A stretch of DNA of 64,000 nucleotides from Dehalococcoidia bacterium (GCA_025054935.1 JANWZD010000002.1:172145-236144), one strand, 5' to 3'. Positions 4,174-32,816 are shown, numbered from the stretch's first letter. Translations and numbers: made by a program. The notes: generated by a model from the letters alone, not told the origin.

Positions 4174-5880
4174 GTGCAGCACGTTCGCGCGGCGAAAGAC
4201 CCCGCTTCTCGTTGGGCTCAGCCGACCTCGGCGCGGGAGCGCGGGGGGGTGATCGGACGCCGTCGTTTTCTCCAGTTGGCGGGCGCGGCTGCGGGGCTGG
4301 CGTCGGTCCGCTGCGCGCCGATCCTGCCGGCCAGCACCGACATCGGCCCGCCGCTTATCCAGCCGGGGGGGATGCTGCGCGTGGCGGTTGCTGGTGAACT
4401 GCCGAGCGGCGACCCGCTGGTGACAACGCCCGCGAACCAGGTCCTGTGTGGGCTGCTCTACAGCCGGCTTCTGCGCCCCCGCGCGGGCGCTGGAGTGCCC
4501 TACGACTCGGCCGAGATTATCGAAGACCTCGCCGAGAAGTGGGAACAGGTCGATGACTATGTCTACATCTTCTATCTGCGCCGCGGGGTCCGCTGGCACG
4601 ACCTCCCGCCGGTCGCTGCCCGGGAGGTCGTCGCTGATGATGTCCGGCTGACCCTCGAACGGCTGATCGCGCTGCGGCCTGCCGCCGCCCCGCTCGCCTT
4701 CGGCGCCATTGACCGGATTGAGCTGCCCGACCGCTACACCCTCAAGCTGACGCTCCGCGAGCCCCTTCCGTCGATCATCGCGGCGATTGCCAGTCCTCTT
4801 GCGCGGATTGTGCCGGCGGAGCTGATCGATCGCGAAGTCGACCTGCGGCGTCATCCCGTCGGCTCGGGCCCCTTCCTGCTGCCGCGTCCCGACCGCAGCG
4901 GCCGGATTGTGCTCCGCAAAAACCCCGGCTATTTTCGCTCCAGCCAGCCCTATCTCGAGGCGGTGGAGCTGGTCTTGGTGCCGGACCGCGCCACAGAACT
5001 GGCGCTGCTCAAAAACCGAGAGAGCGACCTCGGCATCGAACCGGCCGGGCTGCTGCAGAGCGAGGCAGACGCGCTGCGCGCCGCGAACCCCGACCTCGTC
5101 ATCAGCCGCATCCAGCGGCCGACCGTCATCCTGCTCGGCTACAACGACGCCCGCGCGCCGTTCCACGACGTCCGCCTCCGTCAGGCAGTCTCGCTCGCGC
5201 TCGACCGGCGGCGCCTGGCGAGCGAGGCGTATGGCGAGAATTATGTCTTGTCTGGGCATGTCCCGCCGTCGGTAGCGGACTGGGCGCTTTTCCCGGACGA
5301 GGTAGAACGGTTGTGGGGGCGCCGAGACATCGCCCGAGCGCGCGCGCTCTGGGCAGAGGCGGCCGTTGTCGACCCGGGCGAGCTGACGTTGCTGGTGCAT
5401 CCCAGCGCTGACCTTGGCGGGCTCGCCGACGGGATCGTGGAGCAGCTTCGGGAGGCGGGGATCCGCGCTCGCCTCTCTCGTCTCGAGCCGGTTCTGCTCG
5501 GGCGGGCGCTTGCTGACCGCGCTTTCGACCTCCTACTCATCCAGCCCGCGCCCTCGACCGAATTCGATGACTGGACCGGCGCGCTCTACAGCGCGGCCTC
5601 CCCGCGCAATCTCTGGGGCTATGTCGACCGCCGGTTTGAGGAGCTGCTCCTTCGCACGCGCCGCGGCCCGGACCGAGAAGGACGCCGTCGCGCGGCGCTC
5701 GACCTCCAGCGCTACCTTGCCGATAAGGTTCCGGTCGCCCCCCTCTTCTCGCCAGTGCACTACTATGCTGTTGCCGCGAACGTGAAGGGCTGGGCGCCCC
5801 ATTGGTCCGCCGGCTTGCCCGGCCTCGATGAGGCGTGGCTTTACCGCCCGCCGCTCCCGACACCGACCGGGCGGGGATAA
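4174..5880 (+). CDS. ABC transporter substrate-binding protein, family 5 (peptide/nickel/oligosaccharide type), Tat signal
   Basis: Twin-arginine signal (GRRRFLQLAGAAAGLA) followed by the SBP_bac_5-type core (GGMLRVAVAGELPSGDPL...). The start is uncertain (GTG at 4174 or downstream GTG at 4249). Confidence 0.8.
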   Translation: MQHVRAAKDPASRWAQPTSARERGGVIGRRRFLQLAGAAAGLASVRCAPILPASTDIGPPLIQPGGMLRVAVAGELPSGDPLVTTPANQVLCGLLYSRLLRPRAGAGVPYDSAEIIEDLAEKWEQVDDYVYIFYLRRGVRWHDLPPVAAREVVADDVRLTLERLIALRPAAAPLAFGAIDRIELPDRYTLKLTLREPLPSIIAAIASPLARIVPAELIDREVDLRRHPVGSGPFLLPRPDRSGRIVLRKNPGYFRSSQPYLEAVELVLVPDRATELALLKNRESDLGIEPAGLLQSEADALRAANPDLVISRIQRPTVILLGYNDARAPFHDVRLRQAVSLALDRRRLASEAYGENYVLSGHVPPSVADWALFPDEVERLWGRRDIARARALWAEAAVVDPGELTLLVHPSADLGGLADGIVEQLREAGIRARLSRLEPVLLGRALADRAFDLLLIQPAPSTEFDDWTGALYSAASPRNLWGYVDRRFEELLLRTRRGPDREGRRRAALDLQRYLADKVPVAPLFSPVHYYAVAANVKGWAPHWSAGLPGLDEAWLYRPPLPTPTGRG

Positions 5881-5883
5881 GCA

Positions 5884-6834
5884 ATGCCCACGGAGACAAT
5901 CCTTGGTCGGCACGCGGTCAGCGAGGCGCTTCGCGCCGGGCGTCCCATCCGTCGGCTGCTGGTGGTCGGCGCGCGGGGGCTTGTGCCTCCGTCGTACCAC
6001 GATCTCGCCGCGCTCGCCCGGCAGCACGACATCCCGGTGCACATCGTTAACCGCCAAACGCTCGACCGGCTCGGCGCTCAGCATCAAGGAATTGCGGCGG
6101 AGGTGGAGCCGTTCGCCTACGTTGAGCTCGACGCGCTCTTCGAGGCGGCAGCCGCAAGCGGGCGCCCCTTCTTGGCCGTCGTGCTCGACTCGGTTCAAGA
6201 TCCCCAGAACTTCGGAACACTTCTCCGCACTGCTGCCGCGCTTGGCGCCCACGGCATCCTTCTTCCGAAGCACCGGTCGGTAGCCGTCACCCCGGCAGTG
6301 GAGCGCGCCTCTGCCGGCGCCGTATCGCGGCTGCGTATCCACCGCGCCACGAACCTTCCCCGAGCGCTCGACCAGCTCCGAGAGCGGGGAGTGTGGGTGT
6401 ATGGGATCGATGCTCGCGCTCCCCTGCGCTACGATCAGGTGGACCTGACCGGGCCGATTGCTCTTGTCGTCGGCTCGGAGGGAGCCGGGATCAGTCGTCT
6501 CGTCGGCGAACACTGCGACCGGATGCTCCGCGTGCCGATGGCCGGCGAATTCGACTCCCTGAACGTCGCGGTCGCCGGCTCAATCGTCTTGGCCGAAGTC
6601 TTCCGCCAGCGCGAGCGAGTAGGCGAAGCGGCGGAAGGGCCGCTCCCCCCGAAGCAGGCCAAGGCGAGCTCCGCCGCCGGCGCGCGCGAGACCGCGCCAG
6701 TCTCTGCTCCTCCGACGCCCGGCCTGCCCCGGCCGACCCCTGACCGCCAGCCGACGCGGGCTCAGGGCGGGAAGCGACGCTCCGGTCGGCCGCCGGGCAT
6801 GGGCGGGCGGGGACGCCCCGGCCGCCGGAAATGA
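5884..6834 (+). CDS. rlmB: TrmH/SpoU-family 23S rRNA 2'-O-methyltransferase (RlmB-like) with basic low-complexity C-terminal tail
   Basis: SpoU methylase motifs (LDSVQDPQNFGTLLRTAAALGA; LVVGSEGAGIS; EFDSLNVAVAGSIVL) and an N-terminal substrate-binding-like domain. About 70 aa of Pro/Arg/Gly-rich tail. Confidence 0.8.
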   Translation: MPTETILGRHAVSEALRAGRPIRRLLVVGARGLVPPSYHDLAALARQHDIPVHIVNRQTLDRLGAQHQGIAAEVEPFAYVELDALFEAAAASGRPFLAVVLDSVQDPQNFGTLLRTAAALGAHGILLPKHRSVAVTPAVERASAGAVSRLRIHRATNLPRALDQLRERGVWVYGIDARAPLRYDQVDLTGPIALVVGSEGAGISRLVGEHCDRMLRVPMAGEFDSLNVAVAGSIVLAEVFRQRERVGEAAEGPLPPKQAKASSAAGARETAPVSAPPTPGLPRPTPDRQPTRAQGGKRRSGRPPGMGGRGRPGRRK

Positions 6835-7415
6835 TGCGGCTGCTGCTCCTCTCGGCGTCGCCGCGCCGGCGCGACCTCCTTGCTGCAAGCGGCCTCTCTT
6901 TTGAGGTCTGCCCAGTCGCCATCGACGAGACCCCCCGCCCCGGGGAGTCCCCCGCGCAGCTCGCGGAGCGGCTGGCCCGCGAAAAAGCGGCCGTGGCCCC
7001 GGTGCGCGACGCTTGGGGCATCGCCGCCGACACCGTCGTTGCCCTCGAAGGCGAGGTGTTCGGCAAGCCGGCAACCCCCGAGGAAGCGGTCGCGATGCTT
7101 CGCCGGCTGCGCGGCCGCTGGCATGAGGTGTATACCGCAGTCGCCGTTCGCCGTCCGGATGGCGTTCTCCTCTCCGCGGTTGACCGCACCCGTGTCCTCA
7201 TGCGCTCGTATAGTGACCAGGAGATCGCCGCCTACGTCGCGAGCGGCGACCCGCTCGACAAAGCGGGAGCGTATGCAATCCAGCATCCGGGCTTCCGGCC
7301 GGTCGAGCGGATCGAAGGGCGATACGATACTGTCGTCGGGCTGCCGGTACCCCTGGTCATGCAGCTGCTCGATGCTGCCGGCTGGCCGCTCAGGTCAGCC
7401 GCAAGTCCGCAATAA
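6831..7415 (+). CDS. maf: Maf-like nucleoside triphosphate pyrophosphatase
   Basis: Maf family motifs (LLSASPRRRDLL ... AYAIQ) over 194 aa. ATGA overlap with the preceding gene. Confidence 0.85.
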   Translation: MMRLLLLSASPRRRDLLAASGLSFEVCPVAIDETPRPGESPAQLAERLAREKAAVAPVRDAWGIAADTVVALEGEVFGKPATPEEAVAMLRRLRGRWHEVYTAVAVRRPDGVLLSAVDRTRVLMRSYSDQEIAAYVASGDPLDKAGAYAIQHPGFRPVERIEGRYDTVVGLPVPLVMQLLDAAGWPLRSAASPQ

Positions 7416-8061
7416 GGTCGGTCTCGCTCGTCTGGATCGCGAGGATTCGAAAGCCGACAGCATTCCGGTAGGCGTTCATGCGGGTGTTGATCGCCTCCTC
7501 AACGACCTCGGCAATCTGCCCCCGAAACGGCAGGAGCAGGAGTGAGGAGCTGAGAGGCGTCACCGCAATGCGGTTTCCCGCCAAGGAAAGCTGCCCCGTA
7601 AACGAGAGGGCGAGGTCGCGCGCGCCGACCGGACGCGCGCGCAGGACGATGATGTTGCCAGGGCGGATGTCGAGGTCAACGGTGTCGATGCCGGCGCCGA
7701 TCCCGCTGGTCGGGATCGACTGGTTGGCAACGGAATTGAGATACGCCTCTGAGATCCGAAGCTGCACGTCATAGCGTCCCGGTGGGCGGGGCGTCGGCTC
7801 GGGGAGCAGCTCCGGAAAAGGCGTCGGCGTTGCGGCGGGAACGAGGACCGGAAGTTCGGTAGGGGTCGGCGCTGCTGGGCTCGCGCCGAAGGTGACCGGC
7901 TCGGCGAACTGGGCGACGATTGTCGCCGCCGCCGCGTAGCCGAGAAGGAGCAGCAGCGCGAGGGTTCCTACCGCGCCGAGCGCCATCATGCCGAGGGAAT
8001 AGAGACATGAATGGACCGGGGGACTAAGGGTCGGGTCGGGTCGGCGGCCCGGCTTGATCAC
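7390..8061 (-). CDS. hypothetical membrane-anchored protein (N-terminal TM, Pro/Thr-rich linker, C-terminal globular domain)
   Basis: ORF with a hydrophobic N-terminus (MMALGAVGTLALLLLLGYAAAA) and a PTPT linker, convergent with maf. No family motif recognised; a start at Met25 (7989) is possible. Confidence 0.4.
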   Translation of the reverse strand: MIKPGRRPDPTLSPPVHSCLYSLGMMALGAVGTLALLLLLGYAAAATIVAQFAEPVTFGASPAAPTPTELPVLVPAATPTPFPELLPEPTPRPPGRYDVQLRISEAYLNSVANQSIPTSGIGAGIDTVDLDIRPGNIIVLRARPVGARDLALSFTGQLSLAGNRIAVTPLSSSLLLLPFRGQIAEVVEEAINTRMNAYRNAVGFRILAIQTSETDLIADLRLT

Positions 8062-8186
8062 GCCTCATCTCCTACAGTGATGTTTTAACGCCGTCGGCCA
8101 GTGTTCGTTCCGCCTCCTTGACTCCTTGCTGCTCGCGCTCGAGAATCGCGTCGGACCCGGACAGGATGGCCGAAAGGGGGCGTGCC

Positions 8187-9521
8187 ATGCGGATTCTTTG
8201 GGTGCTGGCGCTTGCGCTGGCGCTGATCATTCCGGCGAACGTGTCGGCGCAGGAGCCGAGAGCGGGGCGGATCGCGTTTGCCGGACCGTTCGGCCTCTGG
8301 ACGATCGGGAGCGACGGGCGCGGTGAACAGCTGCTTCCCAGCGGGGTGGGCGCCGACATGCCGGCGTGGTCCCCGGATGGCCGCCGCCTCGTCTACGTCA
8401 TCAGCGGCACGCCGGAAGCAGGGGTCTGGCTGCTCGACCTGCAGGACGGCTCCCGCCGCCTCCTGACGCGCGATCTCTGGCGCTGGCCGGCCTGGTCTCC
8501 CGATGGCCGCGCGATCGCGTTTACGCTGCCGCATCCGTTCGGCTCTGACCTCGGCATCTGGGACCTCCAAGTAGGCGCCGGCGTCATCATCGCTACTGGC
8601 GGGTTCAATGAAGCGCCCTCGTGGTGGCTCGACGGCTCGCGCCTGCTTTTCAGCCGGAATGGCGAAATCTGGAACATTCGCGTTGATGGCGGCGAGGCCG
8701 GGCCCCTGCCGGGGCTCGCGGGGATACGAGCGCTGCAGGCTGCTTGGTCGCCGGACGGCTTGCGGCTTGCCTACCTCACGACACCCAGAGAACGCAGCTT
8801 CGACGACCCGACCGCGCCGGTCCAATTGTGGGTCGCAACGAGCGAAGGGTTTGACGGCCAGTGGATCGCCCAGGGCGCGATCGACCGGACGCAGCGGATC
8901 AGCTGGTCGCCGGATGGCAACCAGATCGCTTTCGCGGTCCTCTCCGGCCTCGGGTCGGATATCTACACCATCTACCGAACGGGCGGAGAGTGGCAGCGCC
9001 TCTCGGACGGACGCAATCCGGCGTGGCGGCCGGCGGTGCCGGACGTGACGCGCCCTGTCTCACCGGTGTGCGCGATCGCTCCGGAACGGCTGTATGCCGA
9101 CGCCTTCCGGAAAGTGCCCGCGCTCCAACAGTATATCGGCTGCCCCACCGACCAGATCTCCTCGGTGTATGGGGTGATGCAGGAGTTCGAAGGCGGGTTC
9201 CTCTACTACCGGACCCTGCCGAGCGGCACGACGACATGGGTGTTCTTCAACGACGGCACGTGGACTGCCGGCGACCCCCGTCCGCTGCTCGCAGCGCCGA
9301 TCGTTCCGCCGCCGCCCGGCCGCTTCGTGCCGAGGAATGCCTTCTTCAACGTGTGGGTTGCCCTTGGCGGCCCCGTGTCGCGGCTTGGCTGGGCGACGAC
9401 CGAAGAGACGGGCTTCCCGAGCGACGGGCAGCCGTATGAACGCGGCCTCGCGTTTGCGGGGAACAATCGCGTTATCTTCCTCAACGTCGACGGGACGTAC
9501 CAGATGGTGCTGCTGCCCTAG
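8187..9521 (+). CDS. TolB-like periplasmic beta-propeller protein (PD40/WD40-like repeats) with extra C-terminal domain
   Basis: Signal peptide (MRILWVLALALALIIPANVSA) at the internal ATG 8187, preceded by AAGGGGG. Repeated WSPDGRRLVY / WSPDGRAIAF / WSPDGLRLAY / WSPDGNQIAF PD40 motifs. The track ORF start at 8118 is probably too far upstream. Confidence 0.7.
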   Translation: MRILWVLALALALIIPANVSAQEPRAGRIAFAGPFGLWTIGSDGRGEQLLPSGVGADMPAWSPDGRRLVYVISGTPEAGVWLLDLQDGSRRLLTRDLWRWPAWSPDGRAIAFTLPHPFGSDLGIWDLQVGAGVIIATGGFNEAPSWWLDGSRLLFSRNGEIWNIRVDGGEAGPLPGLAGIRALQAAWSPDGLRLAYLTTPRERSFDDPTAPVQLWVATSEGFDGQWIAQGAIDRTQRISWSPDGNQIAFAVLSGLGSDIYTIYRTGGEWQRLSDGRNPAWRPAVPDVTRPVSPVCAIAPERLYADAFRKVPALQQYIGCPTDQISSVYGVMQEFEGGFLYYRTLPSGTTTWVFFNDGTWTAGDPRPLLAAPIVPPPPGRFVPRNAFFNVWVALGGPVSRLGWATTEETGFPSDGQPYERGLAFAGNNRVIFLNVDGTYQMVLLP

Positions 9522-9666: not shown

Positions 9667-11277
9667 GTGCAGGAGCTTCGCGGGGTTCAGCTCGGCCCCT
9701 ACGTCCTCGAACGCGAAATTGGCCAGGTCGGGGCGGCGCGTGTCTTTGTCGGGATGCAGACGACCCTCGGCCGTCGCGTTATGGTGAAAGTCCTCAACCT
9801 CTCTGGCGCTGTCAGTCCGACGGTTATCGAGCGGTTCAAACGCGAAGCGGCCGCGATCTCGCGGCTGCGCCATCCGCATATCGTTACTGTCCACGACTTT
9901 GGAGAAGAGAGCGGTCTGCTGTACCTCGTGACCGAGTATGTCGAGGGCGGCACCCTCGCCGAGCGCCTCGGCCAGCCGCTGCCGTTCATCCAGGCCTACC
10001 TGATCATTTCCCAGGTTGCGAGCGCCCTCGACTATGCCCACTCGCGCGGGGTGATCCACCGCAACGTCAGCCCCGATACCTTGCTGCTCGTTGAGCGGGG
10101 CGGCCCGCGGAGCCTCCTCGACGGCAATGCCCATCCGTGGGTCCTGCTCTCTGACTTCAGTCTCGTCAAGCTGACCGACCTGCCGACGGTGACAGGCAAT
10201 GCCGCGCTCTTCGGCGCACCGTATTACATGAGCCCCGAACAGGCCCAGGGCTTGCCTGTCGATAAGACGACCGACATCTACTCCTTAGCGATCGTCGCTT
10301 TCGAGCTGTTGACGGGCCATGTGCCTTTTGGCGGCAACACCGCCTTCGAGGTAGCGAATAAGCACATCACCGAGCCGCTGCCGAGCGTGCGTCTTGTCGT
10401 CCCCGACCTTCCTCCCGAGATCGATCGCGTGCTCCAGACCGCGGCGGCCAAGTACCCGCGCGAGCGCTATCAGTCAGCCGGAGACTTCGCCGACGCGTTC
10501 GCGCGAGCGGGAGGGATCGAGCCGACCGGGCGCGACGCGTCTCTCATCACGCCTAGCGTCGGAAACGGCGTTGCGCCGGCCTTCCCGGCGGGCGAGCCGG
10601 TCGACGACGAAGACGAAGCGCCGATCCGGCCGCTCCCCTCTTGGGCGATCCCCGCTGGGGGCGCGACGATCGGTTTGCTCTTTATCTGCCTCGCCATATT
10701 CTGCGGCCTTAATATCGTGGGTCCGGCGGTCAGCCGCGCTCTCGGGCTGACGACGACCCCAACTCCCACTGCGACCCCAACTGTCCGCCCGGTGCTGCCG
10801 GCAGCAACCGGCACCGTGACTGGCACGGCCGGAACAGCGGCGACGCCGACGATCCCCGTGCCGACGGTTGTTGTGACGGGGGCAGTCATCTTTCCTTCCG
10901 ACGCCGAGGCCGTCCAGAATGTTGTCCGCCAGAGCAACGTTGTTTGGGCGAGGGCAGTGGGCAAGGGCGGCACTACTGATGAACTGAGCACGGTCTTCGC
11001 CGGACGCTGGCTGAACCTGATCACCAGCCAGGTCCGCGCTCTGCGCAGCAATCAGCAATACCGCGACGCCCAGCTGCTCGACCTCCGGATCGAGTCCATC
11101 GAATTCCAGAGCAATACCTCGGCGACCGTGCGGACCGTCGAGCGGTGGAACGACACGCTGCGGGCCGAGAACGGAACGCTCATTACGACCAATCCATCCA
11201 ATCTTCGTCAGGAGTACGATCTCGAGCGGATCAACGGGAGATGGTACGTCGTTGACTCTCGGATCCAGCGCGGCTAG
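9667..11277 (+). CDS. Ser/Thr protein kinase homologue with degenerate catalytic motifs (putative pseudokinase), single TM, Thr/Pro linker and C-terminal NTF2-like domain
   Basis: Kinase fold is recognisable (VMVKV lysine, ERFKREAAAISRL, HxVIHRN, DFS, SPE). However the catalytic-loop Asp is Asn (HRN instead of HRD), LKPxN is VSPDT, DFG is DFS and the Gly-rich loop is GQVGAARV. It is followed by a TM helix (IGLLFICLAIFCGL), a TPTPTATPT linker and a C-terminal domain. Confidence 0.8.
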   Translation: MQELRGVQLGPYVLEREIGQVGAARVFVGMQTTLGRRVMVKVLNLSGAVSPTVIERFKREAAAISRLRHPHIVTVHDFGEESGLLYLVTEYVEGGTLAERLGQPLPFIQAYLIISQVASALDYAHSRGVIHRNVSPDTLLLVERGGPRSLLDGNAHPWVLLSDFSLVKLTDLPTVTGNAALFGAPYYMSPEQAQGLPVDKTTDIYSLAIVAFELLTGHVPFGGNTAFEVANKHITEPLPSVRLVVPDLPPEIDRVLQTAAAKYPRERYQSAGDFADAFARAGGIEPTGRDASLITPSVGNGVAPAFPAGEPVDDEDEAPIRPLPSWAIPAGGATIGLLFICLAIFCGLNIVGPAVSRALGLTTTPTPTATPTVRPVLPAATGTVTGTAGTAATPTIPVPTVVVTGAVIFPSDAEAVQNVVRQSNVVWARAVGKGGTTDELSTVFAGRWLNLITSQVRALRSNQQYRDAQLLDLRIESIEFQSNTSATVRTVERWNDTLRAENGTLITTNPSNLRQEYDLERINGRWYVVDSRIQRG

Positions 11278-11294: not shown

Positions 11295-14114
11295 GTGGTG
11301 ACGTCCTCCTCCCGCGTTGATACTCCCCGCATGCTGACGAGGTTCCCAGGGCGCTTGCAGCGGTCTCAGCCGCCTGCTGCGCTCAGCGTCGGCGACTGGA
11401 TCACGGCGGCCTTCCTCGCAGTCGCGGCGTTTCTGCTCTACCGCCAGACCCTCGCGCCCTCGGTCGTCGCCCTCTTCGATGACACGCTCGAGTTTCCCCT
11501 TGCTGCCCACCAGTTCGCCATCCTCCACCCAACGGGCTATCCGCTCTATGCGCTTTTGCTGGGGCTCTTTGCCCTTCTGCCGGTAGGCGAGCTCGCCTAC
11601 CGTGTCAATCTCCTCTCGGCTGTCGCCGGCGCGGCGGCCGTCGGCGGAATGGCAGTGCTCATCCTCGTCCTCGCTGTCGGCTCGCGGCGGGCGAGCGACC
11701 GCGTGGGGGCAGCGGTCGGCGCGCTGCTGCTTGCCGGCTCGAGTGTGTTCTGGTCGCAGGCGATCGTCGCCGAGGTGTACACCTTGGCGGCGGCGCTTGC
11801 GCTCTTCGCTGTCCTCGCTACCCTTCGCGCTCTCCGCTGCGGCCGGGGCTGGAGCTGGGTCGCGTTTGCAGTTGGGCTGGGCCTTGCGCATCACCGCACC
11901 TTCGTCCTCCTCCTGCCTGCCCTTGCGCTCGCGGCGGCGGCGGCCGGCGCGCTCCCTCCTCCTCGCCGGTGGTGCCCGAGCGTGCTCCTGCGAACATGGT
12001 GGCCGCTCGCTCTTGGGCTGCTGCTCTATCTCTACCTCCCGCTTCGAGCCTCGGTCGGCTCAATCGACGGAACCTACCGCAACGACCTCCCCACCTTCCT
12101 TGGGTGGGTGACCGGCGCGGTCTACGGCGGCTTTCTCGGGGAGAACCCGCTCGCGCGTCCGGGCAACCCGCTCCTTGCGTATGCGCAGCTTGTGATCAGC
12201 CAGTTGACGCCGCTCGGCCTCATCTTGGCCGCGCTCGGCTTCGGCTGGCTGCTCGCGCGCTCGTGGCCGCTCGCGCTGCTGCTTGGGGCGTGGTATGTCC
12301 CGACAGCGCTCTTCGCGCTCCTCTACCGCGTTGCCGACCCTGAGGTTTTTGCGCTGCCCTCCTTGCTTCCGCTCGCTGCGGCGGCGGGCGTTGGCGGGGT
12401 CGCGCTCGGGCGCGGCCTCGCGAATGTCGTCCTCCGCTGGAGCATGCCGTGGCGGGCGATTGCTCGCGCCGGAGGCGGCATCGTGCTCGCCGCGCTCGTG
12501 GTGGCGCCAGCGAGCGCGGTGATCGCGAACTACGACGATGTTGACCTGAGCAGCGAACTGACCGCGCGCGCGTACGGGCTCGACGCCCTCGCCCAGCCGT
12601 TGCCGGCGAGCAGCGCCATCATCGCATTGCTCGGCGAAGCGTCGCTGTTCCGCTACCTCCAAACTGCTGTCGGAGCGCGCCCGGACATCGCCGTCCGCTT
12701 TGCCGACCGGGAAGAAGCGCGGCTTGCTGCTGTTCAAGCTGCGCTCGACGAAGGCCGCGAGGTGTACGTGACGCGGCCTCTTTCCGGACTGGCTGAGCGC
12801 TACCATCTCAGCGGCGTCGGCCCGCTAATCGCTGTCGAGCGTCTGCCCGCGGAGACCCTGCCGCCAGGGGTGCGGCCGGTCAACCGGCTTCTCGGCGAGA
12901 TCGAACTGCTCGGTTACACCAGCGAGATCATTTTCGGCTATGGCCTCGGCCCGGGGGGGCCGTCAGACCTTCGTCCCGCCGCTCGGTCGGTGCGCGTGAC
13001 CCTCTTCTGGCGGGCAAGCGCGCCGATTGCCCAAGACCTCGTCACCTTTGTCCACCTCCAGGAGCCCTCTGGCGAGCGCTGGGCCCAGTCGGATAGCCGG
13101 CCGGTTCGCGGAGCGTATCCCGCGCCCCTGTGGAGACCGGGCACCATCGTCGCCGACGTCCACGACCTCCCGCTGCCGCTCGGCACGCCCCCCGGCGACT
13201 ACATCCTCGTTGGCGGGCTCTATCAGGCGGCAGGCGAAGGGAGGGTGGCGCCCCAGAGTGTCCGCGAGGTGCGCCTTGGCCCTCAGTTTCTCGACCCCCG
13301 CCCTGGCGGCTACACCCGCGCTCGGCTCGACCTTGACCCAGCGTTCGCGCGCTTCAGCGGTGTCACCCTAATTGGCCAGCGCCTGCCGAAAGGGTCGGTG
13401 CCGCCGGGGGGGCAGTTGCCGCTGGAAACCCTCTGGCGCAGCGAGCGCGAGATGGCTTCCTCGCTCACCCTGACGGCAGAGCTGCTCGGCGAGGGCCGAA
13501 CGGTGCCGCTCGGCAGCGCGCCGCTTGGCGGACGCTACACCACGGTTCGCTGGCAGCCCGGCGAGATCGTGCGCGACCGCGAGACGTTTCGGCTCCCGCC
13601 CGACCTGCCCGATGGGCGCTATCAGCTTCGGATCTCGCTCGGCGAAGGAACGCGCCATGTCCTCGGGTCGATTGAAGTCGTCGGCCGCCAGCGGCTGTTC
13701 CAGCTGCCGGCGCCGCCTCCCAATCGAACGGCTGTCCGCTTCGTCGGAGGGCCGGAGCTGCTTGGCTGGACGGCGAAACGCGTGGGCAGTGCGCCGGAAC
13801 AGCGCGCCGAGATCACGCTCTACTGGCGCTCGGCCGGCCCGCTCGACAGGGACTACAGTGTCTTTGTCCATCTCGTTGCAATGAACCGGATCGTGGCCCA
13901 GCACGACGGCCAGCCGGCAGACGGCACCGCCCCAACGACGGGCTGGGTGCCGAACGAGTACATCATCGACCGTCACCGTGTTCCGCTCCCTGCCGGCCTT
14001 CCGCCCGAGCAGCTTCGGCTCGTCGTGGGGATGTATGACCCCGTGACCGGTCGCCGTCTCCTCTCTCCTCGCGGCGACGCGGTCGATCTCGGGCCGCTCC
14101 GGTTTGAGCCATGA
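11295..14114 (+). CDS. GT-C superfamily membrane glycosyltransferase (GT39/PMT-like, DUF2723-type) with three tandem C-terminal ~120-aa repeats
   Basis: About 440 aa with 11+ predicted TM helices and PMT/ArnT-like loops (FDDTLEFPLAAHQFAILHPTGYPLY). The C-terminal 500 aa are a threefold repeat (W.PGE..D...LP..LP.G.Y.L..G.Y), seen for example in ...VFVHLVAMNRIVAQHDGQP...LRLVVGMYDPVTGRRL. The start is GTG 11295 or ATG 11331. Confidence 0.8.
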   Translation: MVTSSSRVDTPRMLTRFPGRLQRSQPPAALSVGDWITAAFLAVAAFLLYRQTLAPSVVALFDDTLEFPLAAHQFAILHPTGYPLYALLLGLFALLPVGELAYRVNLLSAVAGAAAVGGMAVLILVLAVGSRRASDRVGAAVGALLLAGSSVFWSQAIVAEVYTLAAALALFAVLATLRALRCGRGWSWVAFAVGLGLAHHRTFVLLLPALALAAAAAGALPPPRRWCPSVLLRTWWPLALGLLLYLYLPLRASVGSIDGTYRNDLPTFLGWVTGAVYGGFLGENPLARPGNPLLAYAQLVISQLTPLGLILAALGFGWLLARSWPLALLLGAWYVPTALFALLYRVADPEVFALPSLLPLAAAAGVGGVALGRGLANVVLRWSMPWRAIARAGGGIVLAALVVAPASAVIANYDDVDLSSELTARAYGLDALAQPLPASSAIIALLGEASLFRYLQTAVGARPDIAVRFADREEARLAAVQAALDEGREVYVTRPLSGLAERYHLSGVGPLIAVERLPAETLPPGVRPVNRLLGEIELLGYTSEIIFGYGLGPGGPSDLRPAARSVRVTLFWRASAPIAQDLVTFVHLQEPSGERWAQSDSRPVRGAYPAPLWRPGTIVADVHDLPLPLGTPPGDYILVGGLYQAAGEGRVAPQSVREVRLGPQFLDPRPGGYTRARLDLDPAFARFSGVTLIGQRLPKGSVPPGGQLPLETLWRSEREMASSLTLTAELLGEGRTVPLGSAPLGGRYTTVRWQPGEIVRDRETFRLPPDLPDGRYQLRISLGEGTRHVLGSIEVVGRQRLFQLPAPPPNRTAVRFVGGPELLGWTAKRVGSAPEQRAEITLYWRSAGPLDRDYSVFVHLVAMNRIVAQHDGQPADGTAPTTGWVPNEYIIDRHRVPLPAGLPPEQLRLVVGMYDPVTGRRLLSPRGDAVDLGPLRFEP

Positions 14115-16891
14115 TGAGCGTCCCGGCGCGGCGTCTCCGCCGAGCGGCCGTGCCGGCAGTTGCCGCTCCCGGCACCTTCCTGCTCGGCGCAGTTGGGGTG
14201 CTGCTGCTGGCTGCAGCTGCGCGCTTCTACAATCTCGGCGCGTCCAGTCTCTGGTATGACGAAGGGTTCAGCGCCTTCGTCGCGAGCGAACCGCTTCCCG
14301 AGCTCATCGCGCATACCGCCCGCGATATCCATCCTCCGCTCTACTATCTCTTGCTTCATGGGTGGATGCAGGCAGCGGGACGGAGCGACGTTGCTCTCGC
14401 ATTTTTCTCGCTCGTCTTCGGTCTGCTCTCGGTTGCGCTCGTCATCGCGCTCGCCCGGCGCTGGTTTGGCGACGGGGCAGGGCTCTTGGCCGGACTGGCT
14501 GCTGCCGTCAATCCCTTCCAAATCTGGTACTCCCAAGAAGTGCGGATGTACACCCTCGCCGCCTTCTTAGGGCTGCTCGTTCTCGCCGCCGCGGGGCGGG
14601 GCGAGCGTCGCGATAGCGCTCTCTACGTCGCGGCCGCAGCCGCTGGCCTCTTCGTCCTCTATTACCTCGCTTTTCTGCTGGTCACGCTTAACCTAGTCAT
14701 GCTGGGAGCGTTCGTCGTGAAGCGGCGGCTGCTTGGGCAGTGGACGCCGCGCCGCTGGCTGATCGCTCAAGTGCTGGTGCTGCTGCTCTACCTGCCGTGG
14801 CTGCCGATCGCGGTGCGGCACGCGCTTGCGCCGGCGGTGCCGCCGTGGCGCGACTTCGTTCCGCCCGACGCGGCGCTGCTGGAGAGTGTCGCGGTCTTCG
14901 CGGCCGGGCAGCTGGCGACGCCGCAGATCCCCCTCACGCTGCTTGTCGTCGGGCTGGTCCTTGCTGCGCTCGGCACGGTGAGCCCGACCGCCGGCCGCAT
15001 GCCGGTTTTCCTCATGCTCGCCGCCGTCGCGGGACCGGTTCTCCTGATCGTGGCAGTCTCCTTCGTCACCCCGCTCTATCATCCGCGCTACCTCTTCCCC
15101 TTCAGCCTCCCGGTGAGCGTGGTGGTCGGCGTGGGGATGGCGCGCCTGCTTGCCGCGGCGCCCCCGCTGGGCGCGGCGGCGCTGGCGGCTCTTCTGCTCG
15201 GCTCGGCAAGCGCCGTGCACGCCTATCACACCGACGACCGGATCGCGCCTGACGACTACCGCGCTGCCGTCGCCTATCTCGCGGAGCGCTGGCAGCCGGG
15301 CGACGCGCTGCTCATGAATGCCGGCTATATCTATGCTCCCTTCGTCCACTACTGGCCGCATCCCATCGGCTGGCGCGGCCGCCTCACCGACAGCCCGCCC
15401 CCGACCGAGGGAGCGATTGTCTACCAGACGGGAACGATTGATGGCCCGCCGGGCCTCGGCGGCGGTGACCCGCGCGCCGATTTCTACTCGACGACGTGGG
15501 CAGAGACTGAAGCTGCTCTTCAGCGCATCGCCGCTCGCCACGCCCGGCTCTGGGTGCTGCGCGGCTACGATACTGTCACCGACCCCCGGGGACAGATCCG
15601 CCAGTGGCTGACCGACCACGGTCGCCCGTTTGAGGATGTCGTCTTTCGCGGCCCAAGCAACATTCGCGTTCAGGGCTGGATTGTCGGCGAGGCGCCTCCC
15701 GAACGCGCTGCGGCGACCGACGGCCCGCTGACGGCGGGATATCGCCCCGTGCGCGGCGATGTGACGGCCGGCGGCTCCGCGCGCGTGGCGATCGCTTGGC
15801 GTCCTGACGCGCCGGTCGATCGCCCGCTGCGCGCCTATCTTGCCCTGGTCGATGAGGAGGGCCGGATTTGGGCGCAGCAGGACGATCCTGCAGTCGGCCC
15901 GGCGTGGACCGCCGCCGCCTGGCGCCGAGGGCAGTGGACTCCAGACCCGCGCGCGTTTCGCATCCCGCCCGGCACACCGCCCGGCGACTACCGGGTTGAG
16001 CTCGGCGCCTACTTCCCCGGCGGCAGCGCGATAGAGTTCGAGACCGCCGCCGGGCGGGCGTGGCGCCTTCCGGTCGGCGAGCTGACCGTTCGCCGCGGCA
16101 TCGGCCTTGCCGACCCGAAAGTGCTGCTCCCGGTCGGCCGAGAGCTCGCGCCGGGACTGTGGCTGGTAGGGGCCGATTTTGGGCAGTTCGAGGTGCGCGA
16201 GGGCGAGACGCTCCGTCCCACCCTCGTCTGGCGGGCGCGCTCTTCCGCGCCGGCAGGGACAATCGCCCTGCGGCTGGTGATGAAAGAAGGACCCGTTGCC
16301 GCGATGACGGCGGGTGAACCGCTCGGCGGGCGCTACCCCCTGCGGGAGTGGCGCGCTGGCGAGCTGGTCCGCGATCCTCGCGAACTGCCGATCCCCGCCG
16401 GCGTCGAGGGGATCGGCACGCTGGAAGTGTCGGCGGGGCAGGGATGGCATCCTCTCGCTGAAGTGCGGGTGGAAGGACGGCAACGACGGTACGATGTTCC
16501 GCGTCTTGGCCAGCCGTTCGGCGCGCGCCTTGGCGACGTCGCCGAGCTTGTCGCCGCAGCCATTGCTGAGGGCAGGCCGGCGCAGGTCACCCTCGTCTGG
16601 CGCGCTGCCGGACGGACCGAGACGAGCTACACCGTCTTTCTCCAAGCGCTGGATGCGGCCGGGCGGATCGTTGCCCAGCGCGACCTTCCCCCCCTCGGCG
16701 GCGCGGCGCTTACCTCAAGCTGGCTGCCGGGCGAAGTGATCGTGGATGAAATCGCCCTCACTCCGCGGCCGGACGTTCCGGCGGGGCCATACCGCCTCAT
16801 CGTCGGCCTCTATGACCCTCGCACAGGCACTCGTCTCCGGCTGCCGAGCGGGGATGATTATGTGGAAATCGGCACCGTGCGTTTCGAATGA
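14111..16891 (+). CDS. GT-C superfamily membrane glycosyltransferase (GT39/ArnT/PMT-like), paralogue of the preceding gene, with the same threefold C-terminal repeat
   Basis: ATGA overlap with the upstream gene. N-terminal PMT/ArnT-like motif (LWYDEGFSAFVASEPL...DIHPPLYYLLLHGWM) and multiple TM helices. The C-terminal repeats are collinear with those of 11295..14114 (YTVFLQALDAAGRIVAQRD...YRLIVGLYDPRTGTRLRLP). Confidence 0.8.
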   Translation: MMSVPARRLRRAAVPAVAAPGTFLLGAVGVLLLAAAARFYNLGASSLWYDEGFSAFVASEPLPELIAHTARDIHPPLYYLLLHGWMQAAGRSDVALAFFSLVFGLLSVALVIALARRWFGDGAGLLAGLAAAVNPFQIWYSQEVRMYTLAAFLGLLVLAAAGRGERRDSALYVAAAAAGLFVLYYLAFLLVTLNLVMLGAFVVKRRLLGQWTPRRWLIAQVLVLLLYLPWLPIAVRHALAPAVPPWRDFVPPDAALLESVAVFAAGQLATPQIPLTLLVVGLVLAALGTVSPTAGRMPVFLMLAAVAGPVLLIVAVSFVTPLYHPRYLFPFSLPVSVVVGVGMARLLAAAPPLGAAALAALLLGSASAVHAYHTDDRIAPDDYRAAVAYLAERWQPGDALLMNAGYIYAPFVHYWPHPIGWRGRLTDSPPPTEGAIVYQTGTIDGPPGLGGGDPRADFYSTTWAETEAALQRIAARHARLWVLRGYDTVTDPRGQIRQWLTDHGRPFEDVVFRGPSNIRVQGWIVGEAPPERAAATDGPLTAGYRPVRGDVTAGGSARVAIAWRPDAPVDRPLRAYLALVDEEGRIWAQQDDPAVGPAWTAAAWRRGQWTPDPRAFRIPPGTPPGDYRVELGAYFPGGSAIEFETAAGRAWRLPVGELTVRRGIGLADPKVLLPVGRELAPGLWLVGADFGQFEVREGETLRPTLVWRARSSAPAGTIALRLVMKEGPVAAMTAGEPLGGRYPLREWRAGELVRDPRELPIPAGVEGIGTLEVSAGQGWHPLAEVRVEGRQRRYDVPRLGQPFGARLGDVAELVAAAIAEGRPAQVTLVWRAAGRTETSYTVFLQALDAAGRIVAQRDLPPLGGAALTSSWLPGEVIVDEIALTPRPDVPAGPYRLIVGLYDPRTGTRLRLPSGDDYVEIGTVRFE

Positions 16892-26581: not shown

Positions 26582-27892
26582 CTAGGGGATGGTCGTTCGA
26601 GTCCACGCCATCGGGTCGACCGCTTCGCCCCGAACGCGCACCTCCCAGTGGAGATGCGGCCCCGTGACCGCGCCGCTCGCGCCGCTCAGTCCAATCCGGG
26701 TGCCCCGATCGACCGCTTGCCCGAGGCGGACATCGGCCCGGCTCAGGTGGTAGTAGCAGCTGAACACCCCGAGGCCGTGGTCGAGAATGACGGCGAGCCC
26801 GCGCACTGCCAGCGTGTCGGCAAGGACGACTGTTCCCGCGGCGGCAGCAGCAACCGGGGTCCCGACGGGACAGTCGAAATCGGTTCCCCAGTGGCGGCTG
26901 GTGATGGGGCCCCCATTGTAGCTGCGCCCGGTGGCGAACTCCGACACAATCGGATGGGGCACGGGAACGAGGAACGGCCCCTCCCACCGCTTGACCGGGG
27001 AGATGCCGGCAAAAATTCGGTCGAGCCGCGCGATCTCCTGGGCGTTGACGTTCGACCCGATCAGTCCGCTTGTCGCGGGCGGGAGCCACACCTCTTCGTT
27101 GGGATAGCGGACGGGGGTGACGGCGACGTCGAATGCGGCCTCGCTCCGGTTGCCGAGCTCATCGACTGCCGCAAGCGCAAGCCGCAGCCGGCCGGGACGC
27201 GTCATCGCGTCGAAGCCGGCGAGCGCCCAATTGAGCAGCCCATCGGCGACGAAGTGAAGCGGCCAGCCGTCGAGCGTTCCCCGCACCTCTGCCGGCACGT
27301 CTGTCCGCACCCGCACCACGAGGGTCTGCCCTTGGCCGACCTGGGTCGAGCGCGGGTCGAGGTCGAGGCGCGGGCCTGAGTTCCGGCTGACAAAAGAAGC
27401 CTGAGCGATTGTCTCGTTCGCGGCTGCAGAGCGGTCGCGCGCGCGCACGGTGACAACGTGCGCTCCGTCGGGGAGAGCAGCGGTGTCGATCCAGTGTTCG
27501 CCTGCCGCTGCCGGCAGCGGCGTCCCGTCGAGGTCGATCGACTCGATTGTCCAATCGTGCGCGTCAGCGACTTCGACAACGACGACCGCGACGCCGCGAA
27601 CCGGTCGCTCGGGGACGCGGATTGTCACCGTTGGGGGCGCGGTGTCCTGGTACCACGCCAGCGTTCGGCCTGCCCGGTCGCGCGCGGCGGGCCAAAGCGC
27701 GCTGATCCCGAGCGCGCCCAGGAGCGCTGGCGGCGCGAGGAGGAGGCAGCCCCGGCGGCTGATCGACCTCAAGCTCATCCCAACGCGCGTATTGTGCCCG
27801 CTTTGCGGCGAGAACACAATCGGCTGGCCGCTCATCCTTGTCTCGTCGGCTGTTTCTGCAGGGTGCACCGGCAGCAGCGGCCGCTCCCGCAC
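26582..27892 (-). CDS. M23 family metallopeptidase (LytM-like) with N-terminal signal and beta-rich N-domain
   Basis: C-terminal M23 motifs (GTDFDCPVGTPV...DHGLGVFSCYYHLSRADV...GPHLHWEVRV). A signal-like segment at Met39 (start 27778) is an alternative start. Confidence 0.8.
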   Translation of the reverse strand: MRERPLLPVHPAETADETRMSGQPIVFSPQSGHNTRVGMSLRSISRRGCLLLAPPALLGALGISALWPAARDRAGRTLAWYQDTAPPTVTIRVPERPVRGVAVVVVEVADAHDWTIESIDLDGTPLPAAAGEHWIDTAALPDGAHVVTVRARDRSAAANETIAQASFVSRNSGPRLDLDPRSTQVGQGQTLVVRVRTDVPAEVRGTLDGWPLHFVADGLLNWALAGFDAMTRPGRLRLALAAVDELGNRSEAAFDVAVTPVRYPNEEVWLPPATSGLIGSNVNAQEIARLDRIFAGISPVKRWEGPFLVPVPHPIVSEFATGRSYNGGPITSRHWGTDFDCPVGTPVAAAAAGTVVLADTLAVRGLAVILDHGLGVFSCYYHLSRADVRLGQAVDRGTRIGLSGASGAVTGPHLHWEVRVRGEAVDPMAWTRTTIP

Positions 27893-27939: not shown

Positions 27940-30276
27940 TTACGGCACCGTGTAGCGCAGAATGACGCCGTCGCCGGCGGCCCACGCCTCGTTCGCGTTC
28001 AGGATCCAGACCGAGCGCAGGTTCGCGTTCGGCGGCGAGACCGACCCGATCCCCGTGTAGAGCGTCCACGTGCCGCCGGAGAGACGCAGGATCGTCAAGT
28101 TGTCGCCGACGGCCCAGCCTTCAGTTGCGGAGAGGAGCGCAACCGCGTTCAGCCGGTTGCCGGTCGGCGAAGGGATCTGGCTCCACGAAGCGCCGTTGAA
28201 GCGCATGATTACGCCTGCATCGCCGACGGCATACGCTTGCCCGAGCGTCGCGCCGGACAGCACCCCTGCCACCCCGTTCAGCGGCACGAGCGCGGTCGCG
28301 ACGGGCTGCCAGACAATCCCGGTCCACTGAAAGATCGAGTTGTCGCCCGGGTCGACCGTTGCATCCGCATTGCCGGAGACGGCGAGCGCGACGGTATCGG
28401 CGAGCGAATGCACGCCGCGGATCGGCGACCCGACCGCAGAGAGCGTGCTCGCGCCAAGGAAGCCCGTGCCGTTCCACGGGTAAGCGCGGCCGAGACTATC
28501 CACCATCCATCCTCGGGTCGCGCTGTGGAGGCTGACGCCGAAGAGATCGACGCCGGGAAGCGGCGCGGGAAGCGGTGCATCGCTCCACGCGCTCCCATTC
28601 CAGCGCTTGGCGGTGCCGTTGCTGCCGACGGCAAGCGCGAGGTTCGGGGCGACGGCGAAGACCGAATGCAGCGTCTCGGAGGTTCCTGCCGCGGTGAGGA
28701 GCCAGCCGTTGATACCGCCTCGAAGCGCCGTTCCCCCATTGCCGACAGCAAAGCCCTCGTTGCTCGACAGCATCGAGATACCGCGCAAGGTGCTGCCGGA
28801 GAACACCTGACGCCAAGTTCCCTGCCCGCTGGGAGGCGGTGTGGGGCACGTCGAGCAGCGAATGATGACGCTCACCGCCTCGATCTGGCGGGAGGCCGGC
28901 GGCGGTCCCTGCTGGCCAACCACGTTCGAGGTGCGCCCGTCCACCCTCGCGACCAGAGCCCGCCCCGCTTGGATGGGAGGCACCGTGAAAGAGAAGTTGC
29001 CGTTGGCATCGACCGTCCCGCTGGCGATCACTTGACCGGTGTCGACGTAGGAGACAGTCACTGGGGTCTGCGGCGTTCCCTGTCCGCTCACAGTCGTCGA
29101 CCCTGGCGTCACCTCGTTCAAGACCGGCCGCGGGTTGAACGCCATGAAGATGAGGAAGTTGTTCGGCCGCTGCCGCCCGACGAACCACATCCACCAGTTG
29201 CCGAATTCATCCTCCACCACCGCGGGGTCGTAGGCGTTGCCGTCGAGAACAGCGTCGTTCGGCAGCGTCATCACGACGCCCCCGTTGAAGCCGTACTTGG
29301 TCCAGTTCACGCCGTCGGTTGAGGTGGCATAGAGGATGCGGCTGGTGTTGGCGGAGTCGTCGCCGCGATACCACATTCGGAAGATCCCGTTGCGGTCTTT
29401 GATCACCATCGGCTCGCCGACGAAATTCGAGTCGGGAGCGCCGGGACCGCCGCGCTCTAGGACGGGGCGATTCCGAATGTTCCAAGTCAAGCCGCCGTCG
29501 AGCGATTCCCCATAGCCGATGGATGTGCGTCCCTCGCTATCGACCGCCGTGAACCAGACTTTATAGACATTGCCGTCTTTCAGCCAGGTGGGGTCGCCGA
29601 CCTCGGCGGCCATGTAGGGAAAGAGGCCGCGGCGGATGACGGGGTCGTCCGGGCGGATTGCGCCGGGGTCGCGGTCGGTCGGCTGAAAGTCGACGAGGGT
29701 GGTGGTGGTGGCGAGGCCGATCTGGGAGACGTTGTTCCTGCGCCCTTCGTAGAGCACCCGATAGCAGCGGCAGTCGCTCGCTCGGTCGTCGATCACCGAC
29801 GGCGCAATCACGCGGCTGTCGAAGCGGCCGGCCCGGGGGTCCATCACCGGGTTTTCGCAGCCGGCGCAGTCGCCGCCGATCACATACTTGCCCCAGACAA
29901 TCCCGTCGCCCGAAATGGCCATGTTCATGTTCGAGTTCGTGTTGCCTGTATCCGGGCATTCGCCGGTGTAGTACATCAAGAAGTTGTACGGTGCCGGGCC
30001 GCCGCCGGGACCCATCCGCGGAAAGGTTGAATTCGGCTGGTAGAGCACCGTCGGGGCGTAGGCGTTGGCGCAGTCGCCTTGGTTGCCCGATTCGCTCGGG
30101 TTGCCCGGAGCGAGCGACGGCCCGCCGTCAGTCGGCAGCCGCGTAAAGACCCCCGGTCTCGTCTGGTAGATCGGCGGCCCCTGCGTATCGGTTGCCCAGG
30201 CCGGGCGCGGCACGCTCATGACGGAGCTGAGCGCCACGGCTGCTGCGAGCAGGAGGGAGGGTAGGACACGAGGCAT
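27940..30276 (-). CDS. secreted multi-domain protein: N-terminal GH43/GH130-like beta-propeller-like region, Ig-like domain, C-terminal Ycf48/BNR-like beta-propeller
   Basis: Signal peptide (MPRVLPSLLLAAAVALSSVMSVPRPAWA). The middle Ig-like segment is VTPGSTTVSGQGTPQTPVTVSYVDTGQVIASGTVDANGNFSFTV. The C-terminal repeats (GTWRQVFSGSTLRGISM..., GTAKRWNGSAWSD..., GVIMRFNGASWSQ...) are typical of Ycf48-like propellers. Confidence 0.7.
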   Translation of the reverse strand: MPRVLPSLLLAAAVALSSVMSVPRPAWATDTQGPPIYQTRPGVFTRLPTDGGPSLAPGNPSESGNQGDCANAYAPTVLYQPNSTFPRMGPGGGPAPYNFLMYYTGECPDTGNTNSNMNMAISGDGIVWGKYVIGGDCAGCENPVMDPRAGRFDSRVIAPSVIDDRASDCRCYRVLYEGRRNNVSQIGLATTTTLVDFQPTDRDPGAIRPDDPVIRRGLFPYMAAEVGDPTWLKDGNVYKVWFTAVDSEGRTSIGYGESLDGGLTWNIRNRPVLERGGPGAPDSNFVGEPMVIKDRNGIFRMWYRGDDSANTSRILYATSTDGVNWTKYGFNGGVVMTLPNDAVLDGNAYDPAVVEDEFGNWWMWFVGRQRPNNFLIFMAFNPRPVLNEVTPGSTTVSGQGTPQTPVTVSYVDTGQVIASGTVDANGNFSFTVPPIQAGRALVARVDGRTSNVVGQQGPPPASRQIEAVSVIIRCSTCPTPPPSGQGTWRQVFSGSTLRGISMLSSNEGFAVGNGGTALRGGINGWLLTAAGTSETLHSVFAVAPNLALAVGSNGTAKRWNGSAWSDAPLPAPLPGVDLFGVSLHSATRGWMVDSLGRAYPWNGTGFLGASTLSAVGSPIRGVHSLADTVALAVSGNADATVDPGDNSIFQWTGIVWQPVATALVPLNGVAGVLSGATLGQAYAVGDAGVIMRFNGASWSQIPSPTGNRLNAVALLSATEGWAVGDNLTILRLSGGTWTLYTGIGSVSPPNANLRSVWILNANEAWAAGDGVILRYTVP

Positions 30277-30483
30277 CGATCCTCCGTTTTAGCCGTGATC
30301 AGGACGCGGCGAGACCGGCCACTGCGCTCTGGCATCGGGCGGACACCCCAAGCGCGAGCGGCGCGGATTATACCGGATGGGCCGCCGCTCTTCCCCGCAT
30401 TCTGGTCGTCTGCCTGGTCAACGAATGAAAGCCGGCGCGGTTGCGTCGGCCTATACTTGCGGCAGAGGGCGCGAGTTTCACAG

Positions 30484-32786: not shown

Positions 32787-32816
32787 GCTGGAACGCCCCT
32801 TTGATACAATCGAAAC

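Follow-up and report, generated by a model that had tools for sequence, protein, structure and literature searches.

GT-C glycosyltransferases are membrane enzymes that take a sugar from a polyprenyl-phosphate carrier at the outer face of the membrane, and they build many of the glycans of the cell envelope. To our knowledge, the choice and holding of the acceptor are understood for few of these enzymes, such as EmbC, AftD, PglB/STT3 and the PMTs, and the envelopes of Chloroflexota are poorly understood. Here we describe two adjacent genes, P1 and P2, in a 64-kb window (the whole stretch of 64,000 nucleotides that was analysed) from a Dehalococcoidia bacterium (GCA_025054935.1, JANWZD010000002.1:172145-236144), each of which encodes a GT-C enzyme ending in three copies of a repeat domain. 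Both proteins are ordinary members of a common, uncharacterised Chloroflexota architecture, and it is the domain family they carry that merits attention.

Several described proteins offer points of comparison. AftD is a mycobacterial arabinofuranosyltransferase of GT-C type with three periplasmic beta-sandwich carbohydrate-binding modules (CBMs) that bind complex arabinan, the middle one of which was judged weak or non-binding (bioRxiv 10.1101/2019.12.22.885152), and the C-terminal domain of EmbC is a lectin-like CBM (PMC3044687). Like these two enzymes, P1 and P2 consist of a GT-C membrane domain followed by soluble beta-sandwich modules outside the cytoplasm, and as in AftD the modules number exactly three, with a degenerate middle repeat that parallels the weak middle CBM. 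Unlike the repeats, however, the CBMs of AftD and EmbC are not mutually homologous and do not occupy the very end of the protein as the repeats do, and the repeat has no sequence relationship to any PDB chain. Furthermore, AftD and EmbC belong to Actinomycetota and to another GT-C subfamily, and their binding has been demonstrated, whereas the repeats come from Chloroflexota and would bind by proposal only.

Human TMEM260 has Asp52 in its first-loop motif, and its luminal C-terminal region, part of which is formed by tetratricopeptide repeats (TPR), has been proposed to select substrates (PMC10214176). P1 similarly possesses an Asp in its first-loop motif and a non-cytoplasmic accessory region after the membrane domain, although this region comprises an alpha/beta domain and three immunoglobulin (Ig)-like sandwiches in place of TPR. 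Finally, the carbohydrate-binding domain of Wzt recognises the modified terminus of the O-antigen (PMC9445017); this domain (Wzt_C) is cytoplasmic and present as a single copy on an ATP-binding cassette (ABC) ATPase, whereas the repeat is extracytoplasmic and often occurs in arrays, and the identity between the two is ~10-15%.

A C-terminal repeat family shared by two GT-C glycosyltransferases

An earlier note on this DNA had described three consecutive modules of ~120 amino acids (aa) at the C-terminus of each protein, giving six copies in all, and this arrangement was borne out by pairwise BLASTP, in which all 15 comparisons among the six copies were significant (E 2.8e-25 to 2.8e-5). Self-comparison of whole P1 and P2 by BLASTP returned the identity diagonal only, and cut segments were compared pairwise instead. 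Envelopes from an hmmsearch with a six-copy profile covered aa 519-665, 670-800 and 801-936 of P1 and aa 521-666, 669-792 and 788-924 of P2, with periods of 119-151 aa that are slightly longer than first proposed, and the array reaches the last residue in both proteins. When aligned, the C-terminal regions of P1 and P2 stay in register, with 35% identity across 397 columns (E 1e-41). The best of the 15 pairs is formed by the terminal copies, here termed repeat c, which are likewise in register but, sharing 45% of their residues across 120 aa (E 2.8e-25), fall short of the near residue-by-residue match described in the note. The motif skeleton proposed for the modules also fits the family consensus, chiefly in copies at the first and last positions, while middle copies lack its FVHL and Q.D elements. 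When the six-frame translation of the whole window was searched with a broad domain profile, just these six copies were recovered, with E-values stated as 1e-25 to 1e-45 and also as 9e-37 to 6e-25.

To place the repeat in a wider context, 1.84 billion cluster representatives (50%-identity level) were searched exhaustively with a profile; 36,052 of them matched at E<=1e-3, and 26,915 passed E<=1e-10. Among the best 150, proteins of 900-1100 aa with three copies predominate, and a few have four. Among 236 collected proteins, a sample enriched for high scorers, three copies are the most frequent state (154 proteins), followed by one (58), two (16) and four (8), and 232 of the 236 terminate with the array. 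Within the named subset of matches, the sources are Chloroflexota, including Anaerolineae, Caldilineaceae, Ardenticatenia, Ktedonobacter, Chloroflexia, Ca. Aquidulcis and Promineifilaceae. At 80 genome loci with P1-type relatives, the copy number is three in the closest relatives and one or two in more distant ones; the best of these relatives, from a Ca. Aquidulcis metagenome-assembled genome (MAG), is 36% identical to P1. A single record among the 80 (L022, JBLMXX010000375.1) bears an Acidobacteriota label, which could reflect mis-binning or horizontal transfer.

Profiles specific to the first, second and third positions were built from the 154 three-copy proteins, none of which derives from the window, and all six window repeats scored best with the profile of their own position. 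For P1, repeat a scored 111.8 bits with the position-1 profile (102.7 and 93.5 with the others) and repeat b 93.0 bits with the position-2 profile (75.7 and 60.9); for P2, the corresponding values were 96.6 bits (71.8 and 63.4) for repeat a and 75.5 bits (63.5 and 49.7) for repeat b, and repeat c reached 123.0 bits with the position-3 profile. Each position also has a recognisable signature: L.D..G..W.Q.D and gtPPG.Y at position 1, a shorter form devoid of FVHL and Q.D at position 2, and sYtVF.Hlld ... Q.D..P..G..PTt.W..GEv ... GmYd..tg.RLpv at position 3. Since the repeat of single-copy proteins is mostly of the position-3 type (41/58), and four-copy proteins follow the order 1-1-2-3, the terminal copy appears to be the canonical one and the inner copies later, specialised additions. 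Judged from these profiles, the triple array is an old module kept in register across hundreds of Chloroflexota proteins, and it did not, by the same sequence evidence, arise through duplication within the P1-P2 locus.

The earlier note had interpreted the locus as a tandem gene duplication. A recent duplication of one GT-C gene would make P1 and P2 sister paralogues whose repeats were inherited from an ancestor at this site, as might be expected from two adjacent, overlapping genes on the same strand with the same overall layout, and from C-terminal regions that are 35% identical over 400 aa (E 1e-41). The membrane halves of the proteins make this history very improbable, given that they fall in different Pfam families. 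P1 matches the TMEM260-like/DUF2723 family (PF11028; aa 63-213, 83.5 bits against a cut-off of 24.2, E 2e-23), whereas P2 matches PMT_2 (PF13231; aa 74-231, 36.3 bits against a cut-off of 26.1, E 8.1e-9), a family with which P1 scored 13.3 bits, under the cut-off. Similarity between the two halves is limited to a BLASTP E-value of 0.01 and an hhalign E-value of 3.6e-7 over 137 of ~500 columns, and at the sequence level the membrane domains are homologous at the rank of the GT-C superfamily only.

Comparison of relatives in a common database of 245 sequences pointed in the same direction. The two membrane halves have separate relatives, at 38-46% identity: full-length relatives of the P1 half share 39-44% identity with it (P0104, P0179, P0090, P0119), and those of the P2 half 43-46% (P0091, P0191, P0159, P0117, P0122), with the same three-copy tail. 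Likewise, the P1 array reached 209-182 bits with arrays from numerous other proteins as opposed to 152 bits with that of P2, and the best matches of the P2 array also lie in other proteins, not in P1. Neighbouring TMEM260-like and PMT_2-type genes recur elsewhere (L007 and L004, described below), which suggests that mixed pairs have been inherited as pairs. Together, these comparisons identify P1 and P2, by their sequences, as two different GT-C glycosyltransferases that are not sister genes, and the reading of the pair as a tandem duplication should be dropped. Gene conversion or module exchange between P1 and P2 was rejected on the ground that their arrays are not each other's best match.

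Membrane domains of P1 and P2

Both proteins have the features that place an enzyme among the GT-Cs, namely a multi-helix membrane domain of GT-C fold and acidic residues in the first extracytoplasmic loop. In the FDDTLEF motif of P1, D63 is nearly invariant among 11 relatives, and D62, D63 and E66 are invariant in the four closest. The corresponding WYDEGF motif of P2 (D50, E51) agrees with a 'DE' in the consensus sequence derived from 48 three-copy proteins, of which 43 match PMT_2. Because this acidic loop-1 motif is both present and conserved, we infer that P1 and P2 are catalytically competent.

The 36.3-bit match to PMT_2 likens P2 to ArnT/PMT-like polyprenyl-phosphate-sugar transferases, and its close full-length relatives in Chloroflexota MAGs are labelled 'glycosyltransferase family 39 protein'. 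However, a canonical GT39 PMT carries PMT (PF02366) and MIR domains, neither of which was reported for P1 or P2 at E<=1, and P2 is therefore not a canonical member of this group; its score with the NCBIfam mannosyltransferase model was 38 bits, against a cut-off of 900. As for P1, Pfam returned no TPR match, and the C-terminal TPR region that marks TMEM260 orthologues, which O-mannosylate IPT domains, was not found. Between the membrane domain and the repeats lies a small alpha/beta domain, seen in P1 and also at aa ~372-520 of P2, which has no Pfam match and may correspond to the soluble GT-C subdomain of other GT-C structures.

Predicted fold and candidate role of the repeat array

That the modules are rich in beta structure, another claim of the earlier note, agrees with an AlphaFold2 model of P1 repeat c built from a 64-sequence alignment, in which eight strands form an Ig-like beta-sandwich with a predicted local distance difference test (pLDDT) score of 95.7 and a predicted template modelling (pTM) score of 0.89. 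In a model of full-length P1 (pLDDT 79.6, pTM 0.62), the helical membrane domain is followed by the alpha/beta domain and three such sandwiches, with block pLDDT values mostly of 80-92 in the sandwiches and low-confidence linkers at aa 549-561 and 669-677. The repeat is thus confidently predicted to be an Ig-like/E-set-type sandwich, with no close characterised relative. A compositional artefact, considered in view of the 69% GC content and the abundance of Pro, Gly and Arg, was ruled out by the high-confidence fold, the position signatures and thousands of homologues.

The note had also been unable to name the repeat family, and our searches agree, with no sequence match in Pfam, NCBIfam or the PDB. 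For the six window repeats, the sole Pfam match at E<=10 was one of 28 residues to MalQ_N; NCBIfam gave no match in the repeat region, and profile searches of the PDB with 6- and 64-sequence alignments returned nothing at E<0.29. Across the wider family, Wzt_C (PF14524) is the sole weak Pfam match that is collinear, being found in 5 of 64 segments at E<=1 (best E 3.7e-5) and by the family consensus at E 0.0078 over profile positions 17-107 of 143 (91 positions); none of the six window repeats matches it in Pfam. The other weak Pfam matches (ML, MG2, NPCBM_assoc and DUF4832) span a single hairpin. Consensus sequences compared with Pfam likewise returned E-set-like matches that all stayed under threshold. 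We regard the distant relationship to Wzt_C as a lead only.

By analogy with the CBM-bearing GT-C enzymes, a substrate- or carbohydrate-binding role of the repeats is plausible. More specifically, we consider it on balance probable that the array binds an acceptor polymer (an envelope glycan or glycoconjugate), bringing it to the GT-C active site. P1 and P2 each combine a membrane catalytic domain bearing the acidic loop-1 motif, a small alpha/beta domain and three C-terminal Ig-like sandwiches; under this proposal, the array would keep the polymer close to the catalytic centre, much like the beta-sandwich CBMs in EmbC and AftD. The canonical terminal copy would be the main binding site, with the inner copies contributing reach or avidity. 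In the wider family, the domain is a promiscuous C-terminal appendage of envelope-facing enzymes and sensors.

A number of observations weigh against an acceptor-binding array. Foldseek searches of the PDB identified nothing at E<=1e-3, with TM-scores of at most 0.55, and the nearest solved folds, the Ig-like domains of glycoside hydrolase family 2 (GH2) enzymes, are structural and are not known to bind sugar. The score with Wzt_C, 16.7 bits, lies below the Pfam gathering cut-off of 30.4, and the conserved W, H, Q/D and E residues could form a surface site or could just pack the core. Also, the acceptor could be a protein, as it is for eukaryotic TMEM260 and the PMTs, and the genes directly around P1-P2 are housekeeping genes, with no glycan cluster among them.

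The structural searches also bear on the possibility that the Ig-like array is passive and serves as a wall-spanning spacer or stalk, an oligomerisation scaffold or a stabiliser, in the manner of the GH2 Ig-like domains. Its best structural matches, though sub-significant, are indeed the non-catalytic Ig-like domains found in GH2 enzymes (LacZ domains 2/4 and relatives), with 7-15% identity, Foldseek E-values of at least 1.6e-3 and TM-scores of at most 0.49, although they are internal where the repeat is terminal, and the repeat has no Pfam match to Glyco_hydro_2. A length-adjusting spacer would further be expected to show one to four copies on the same catalytic family, as observed, and could tolerate a middle copy without the conserved polar motifs. 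We nevertheless regard a passive array as unlikely, since the terminal copy retains YTVF.HL, Q.D and P..G..PT..W..GE in very distant proteins, which exceeds the needs of a spacer, since single copies on unrelated GDSL esterases and PASTA kinases are typical of a targeting or binding module, and since the array occupies the distal tip of the protein, at the C-terminus in 232/236 cases.

Among its best, non-significant matches, Foldseek also lists NPC2, Unc119 and PDE-delta, as might be expected if the repeat were a lipid-binding beta-sandwich (ML/NPC2, Unc119 or PDE-delta-like) engaged with the polyprenyl-phosphate carrier or with a glycolipid acceptor. Weak ML matches are found in 5 of 64 segments (best E 0.02) and in 3 of 48 full-length proteins (best E 2.8e-4). 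All of these matches are sub-threshold, however, the ML similarity spans one beta-hairpin of ~33 residues, and the array forms the outer end of a 400-aa extracytoplasmic tail, remote from a membrane-borne carrier; we give lipid binding very little credence.

Domain partners and gene neighbourhoods

The proteins in which the repeat occurs provide further indications of its role. Among the first 80 matches, Pfam partners include PMT_2/PMT (13), GT87/DUF2029 (6) and Ser/Thr kinases with PASTA domains (15), together with one instance each of PTPS_related (with PMT_2), DUF4832 and a CBM9-like domain. The 48 three-copy proteins are dominated by PMT_2 (43), with TMEM260-like in four and DUF2079 and PTPS_related in one each. 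Since the repeat domain follows the single transmembrane helix in the kinases, which also carry PASTA domains, and an N-terminal anchor in GDSL enzymes, it is extracytoplasmic; hydropathy and these topologies agree with the earlier placement of the modules outside the membrane, on its non-cytoplasmic side. The repeat-bearing PASTA kinases are ~640 aa long and have the repeat at their C-terminus. The kinase gene that abuts P1, combined with the presence of the repeat at the end of PASTA kinases elsewhere, hints at a functional link between kinases and glycosyltransferases.

Genomic neighbourhoods of the relatives revealed an array of arrangements. In one genome (L006, GCA_054018195.1), two GDSL/SGNH lipase-like proteins and a DUF2079 membrane protein (5160-7962 and 14161-15077) each possess one C-terminal copy, and their genes adjoin those for a DegT aminotransferase, a GFO_IDH oxidoreductase, a hexapeptide acetyltransferase and a UDP-GlcNAc 2-epimerase. 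In another (L001), the gene for a three-copy protein is followed by YfhO, Wzy_C and GT4 genes. Several loci contain more than one repeat-bearing gene. The best genome match (L007) has a TMEM260-like gene (three copies) followed by a PMT_2 gene (578 aa, one copy), and a Chloroflexota MAG (L004, GCA_023382375.1, 2649-12910) has consecutive TMEM260-like (three copies), PTPS_related/PMT_2 (four) and PMT/PMT_2 (three) genes. Also, a PTPS/YfhO-type gene (two copies) precedes a TMEM260-like gene (three) at L058, and at L003 the gene for a 620-aa protein (two copies) is followed, with an overlap of 4 nucleotides (nt), by that for a weak PMT_2 protein (two copies). A conserved P1-P2 operon was only partly borne out: such pairs recur (L003, L004, L007, L058) and are not obligatory, a second repeat-bearing gene being found beside the TMEM260-like gene at ~5 of the 80 P1-type genome loci.

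These associations bear on the nature of the acceptor. Were the array to recognise proteins, P1 and P2 would be protein O-glycosyl (mannosyl) transferases in which the repeats act like the TPR of TMEM260 and TMTC or the MIR domain of PMTs. The Pfam family of P1 takes its name from TMEM260, a protein-specific O-mannosyltransferase (PMC10214176), source databases label P2-type proteins as GT39 or mannosyltransferase, and Ig-like domains often mediate protein-protein contacts. However, those database labels stem from homology transfer, the repeat is weakly linked in sequence and fold to the glycan-binding Wzt_C, and its fusions to GDSL esterases, GT87, DUF2079 and PTPS_related/YfhO, along with sugar-nucleotide and Wzy neighbours, point to glycan polymers. 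We therefore consider protein acceptors improbable, and continue to favour recognition of an envelope polymer.

Organization of the locus

P1 and P2 are encoded by two same-strand open reading frames (ORFs) that fill positions 11295-16891 (+) of the window (Table 1). The P2 start codon (ATG, 14111-14113) overlaps the P1 stop codon (TGA, 14112-14114) in a 4-nt ATGA arrangement, and GC content at third codon positions is ~0.8 in both ORFs, which fits coding sequence, within a window of 65-70% GC. Their immediate neighbours encode a Ser/Thr kinase, a PD40 propeller protein, an exonuclease and a penicillin amidase. The kinase stop codon lies 17 nt from the start of P1; because of this gap and the ATGA overlap, the kinase gene, P1 and P2 are probably co-transcribed, and P1 and P2 would thus probably be co-expressed directly after the kinase. 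Profile searches of the six-frame translation identified no repeat copy in the kinase (9667-11277).

Table 1. Positions in the window of P1, P2, their domains and repeats, and selected neighbouring genes.
Feature	Position	Strand	Evidence and remarks
P1	11295..14114	+	939 aa; GTG start; GT-C of TMEM260-like/DUF2723 type; three-repeat C-terminal tail
P1 membrane domain (aa 28-414)	11376..12536	+	hydropathy; helices H32-416 in model; FDDTLEF in first outside loop
P1 small soluble alpha/beta domain (aa ~420-515)	12552..12839	+	alternating helices and strands; block pLDDT ~88-95
P1 repeat a (aa 519-665)	12849..13289	+	position-1 type; gtPPG.Y signature; beta strands in model
P1 repeat b (aa 670-800)	13302..13694	+	position-2 type; divergent, shorter, without FVHL and Q.D
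P1 repeat c (aa 801-939)	13695..14111	+	position-3 type; nearest to family consensus
P2	14111..16891	+	926 aa; ATG start; GT-C of PMT_2 type; three-repeat C-terminal tail
P2 membrane domain (aa 12-371)	14144..15223	+	hydropathy; WYDEGF in first outside loop
P2 repeat a (aa 521-666)	15671..16108	+	position-1 type
P2 repeat b (aa 669-792)	16115..16486	+	position-2 type; divergent
P2 repeat c (aa 788-926)	16472..16888	+	position-3 type; 45% identical to P1 repeat c
Upstream Ser/Thr protein kinase with C-terminal ARC6-like IMS domain	9667..11277	+	Pfam Pkinase E 4.5e-34; ARC6-like_IMS E 5.5e-8
GT4 glycosyltransferase genes	30295-31602, 31599-32786	+	part of downstream glycan-type run
NAD-dependent epimerase/dehydratase	32817-33827	+	part of downstream glycan-type run
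Wzy_C (O-antigen-ligase-like) protein fused to long TPR array	33831-36593	+	920 aa; downstream run

The PD40 (TolB-like) beta-propeller protein upstream of the kinase (8118-9521, +) is 467 aa long and has a hydrophobic N-terminal segment and a C-terminal region of ~150 aa without a family match. The gene annotation of the window includes no polyprenyl-phosphate-sugar donor-synthase gene adjacent to P1 or P2. Approximately 13 kb downstream of P2 lies a run of genes of surface-glycan type (30295-36593, +). Also present, on the opposite strand (-), is an M23 peptidase gene (26582-27892) adjoining that for a 777-aa protein with the bacterial Ig domain Big_6 (27940-30276), both of them envelope-facing.

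Implications

The result for the window itself is modest. Its broader interest lies in the definition of a very large domain family that has no Pfam or NCBIfam model and forms the outward-facing end of PASTA kinases and of many enzymes of the envelope. Extending the proposed binding role beyond P1 and P2, we regard it as possible, if rather doubtful, that the repeat constitutes a Chloroflexota-wide domain for recognition of an envelope polymer, common to at least five GT-C families, SGNH/GDSL esterases and PASTA kinases. Proteins that build, edit and sense the envelope would then read the same wall or sheath glycan, position-specialised arrays of one to four copies would set reach or chain length, and the kinase encoded upstream of P1 would take part in the same circuit. 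Should the repeat bind a specific polymer, it would provide a handle for finding that polymer. If this is true, tens of thousands of proteins now called 'hypothetical' or 'GT39' could be annotated, and glycan synthesis would be tied to kinase sensing in Chloroflexota.

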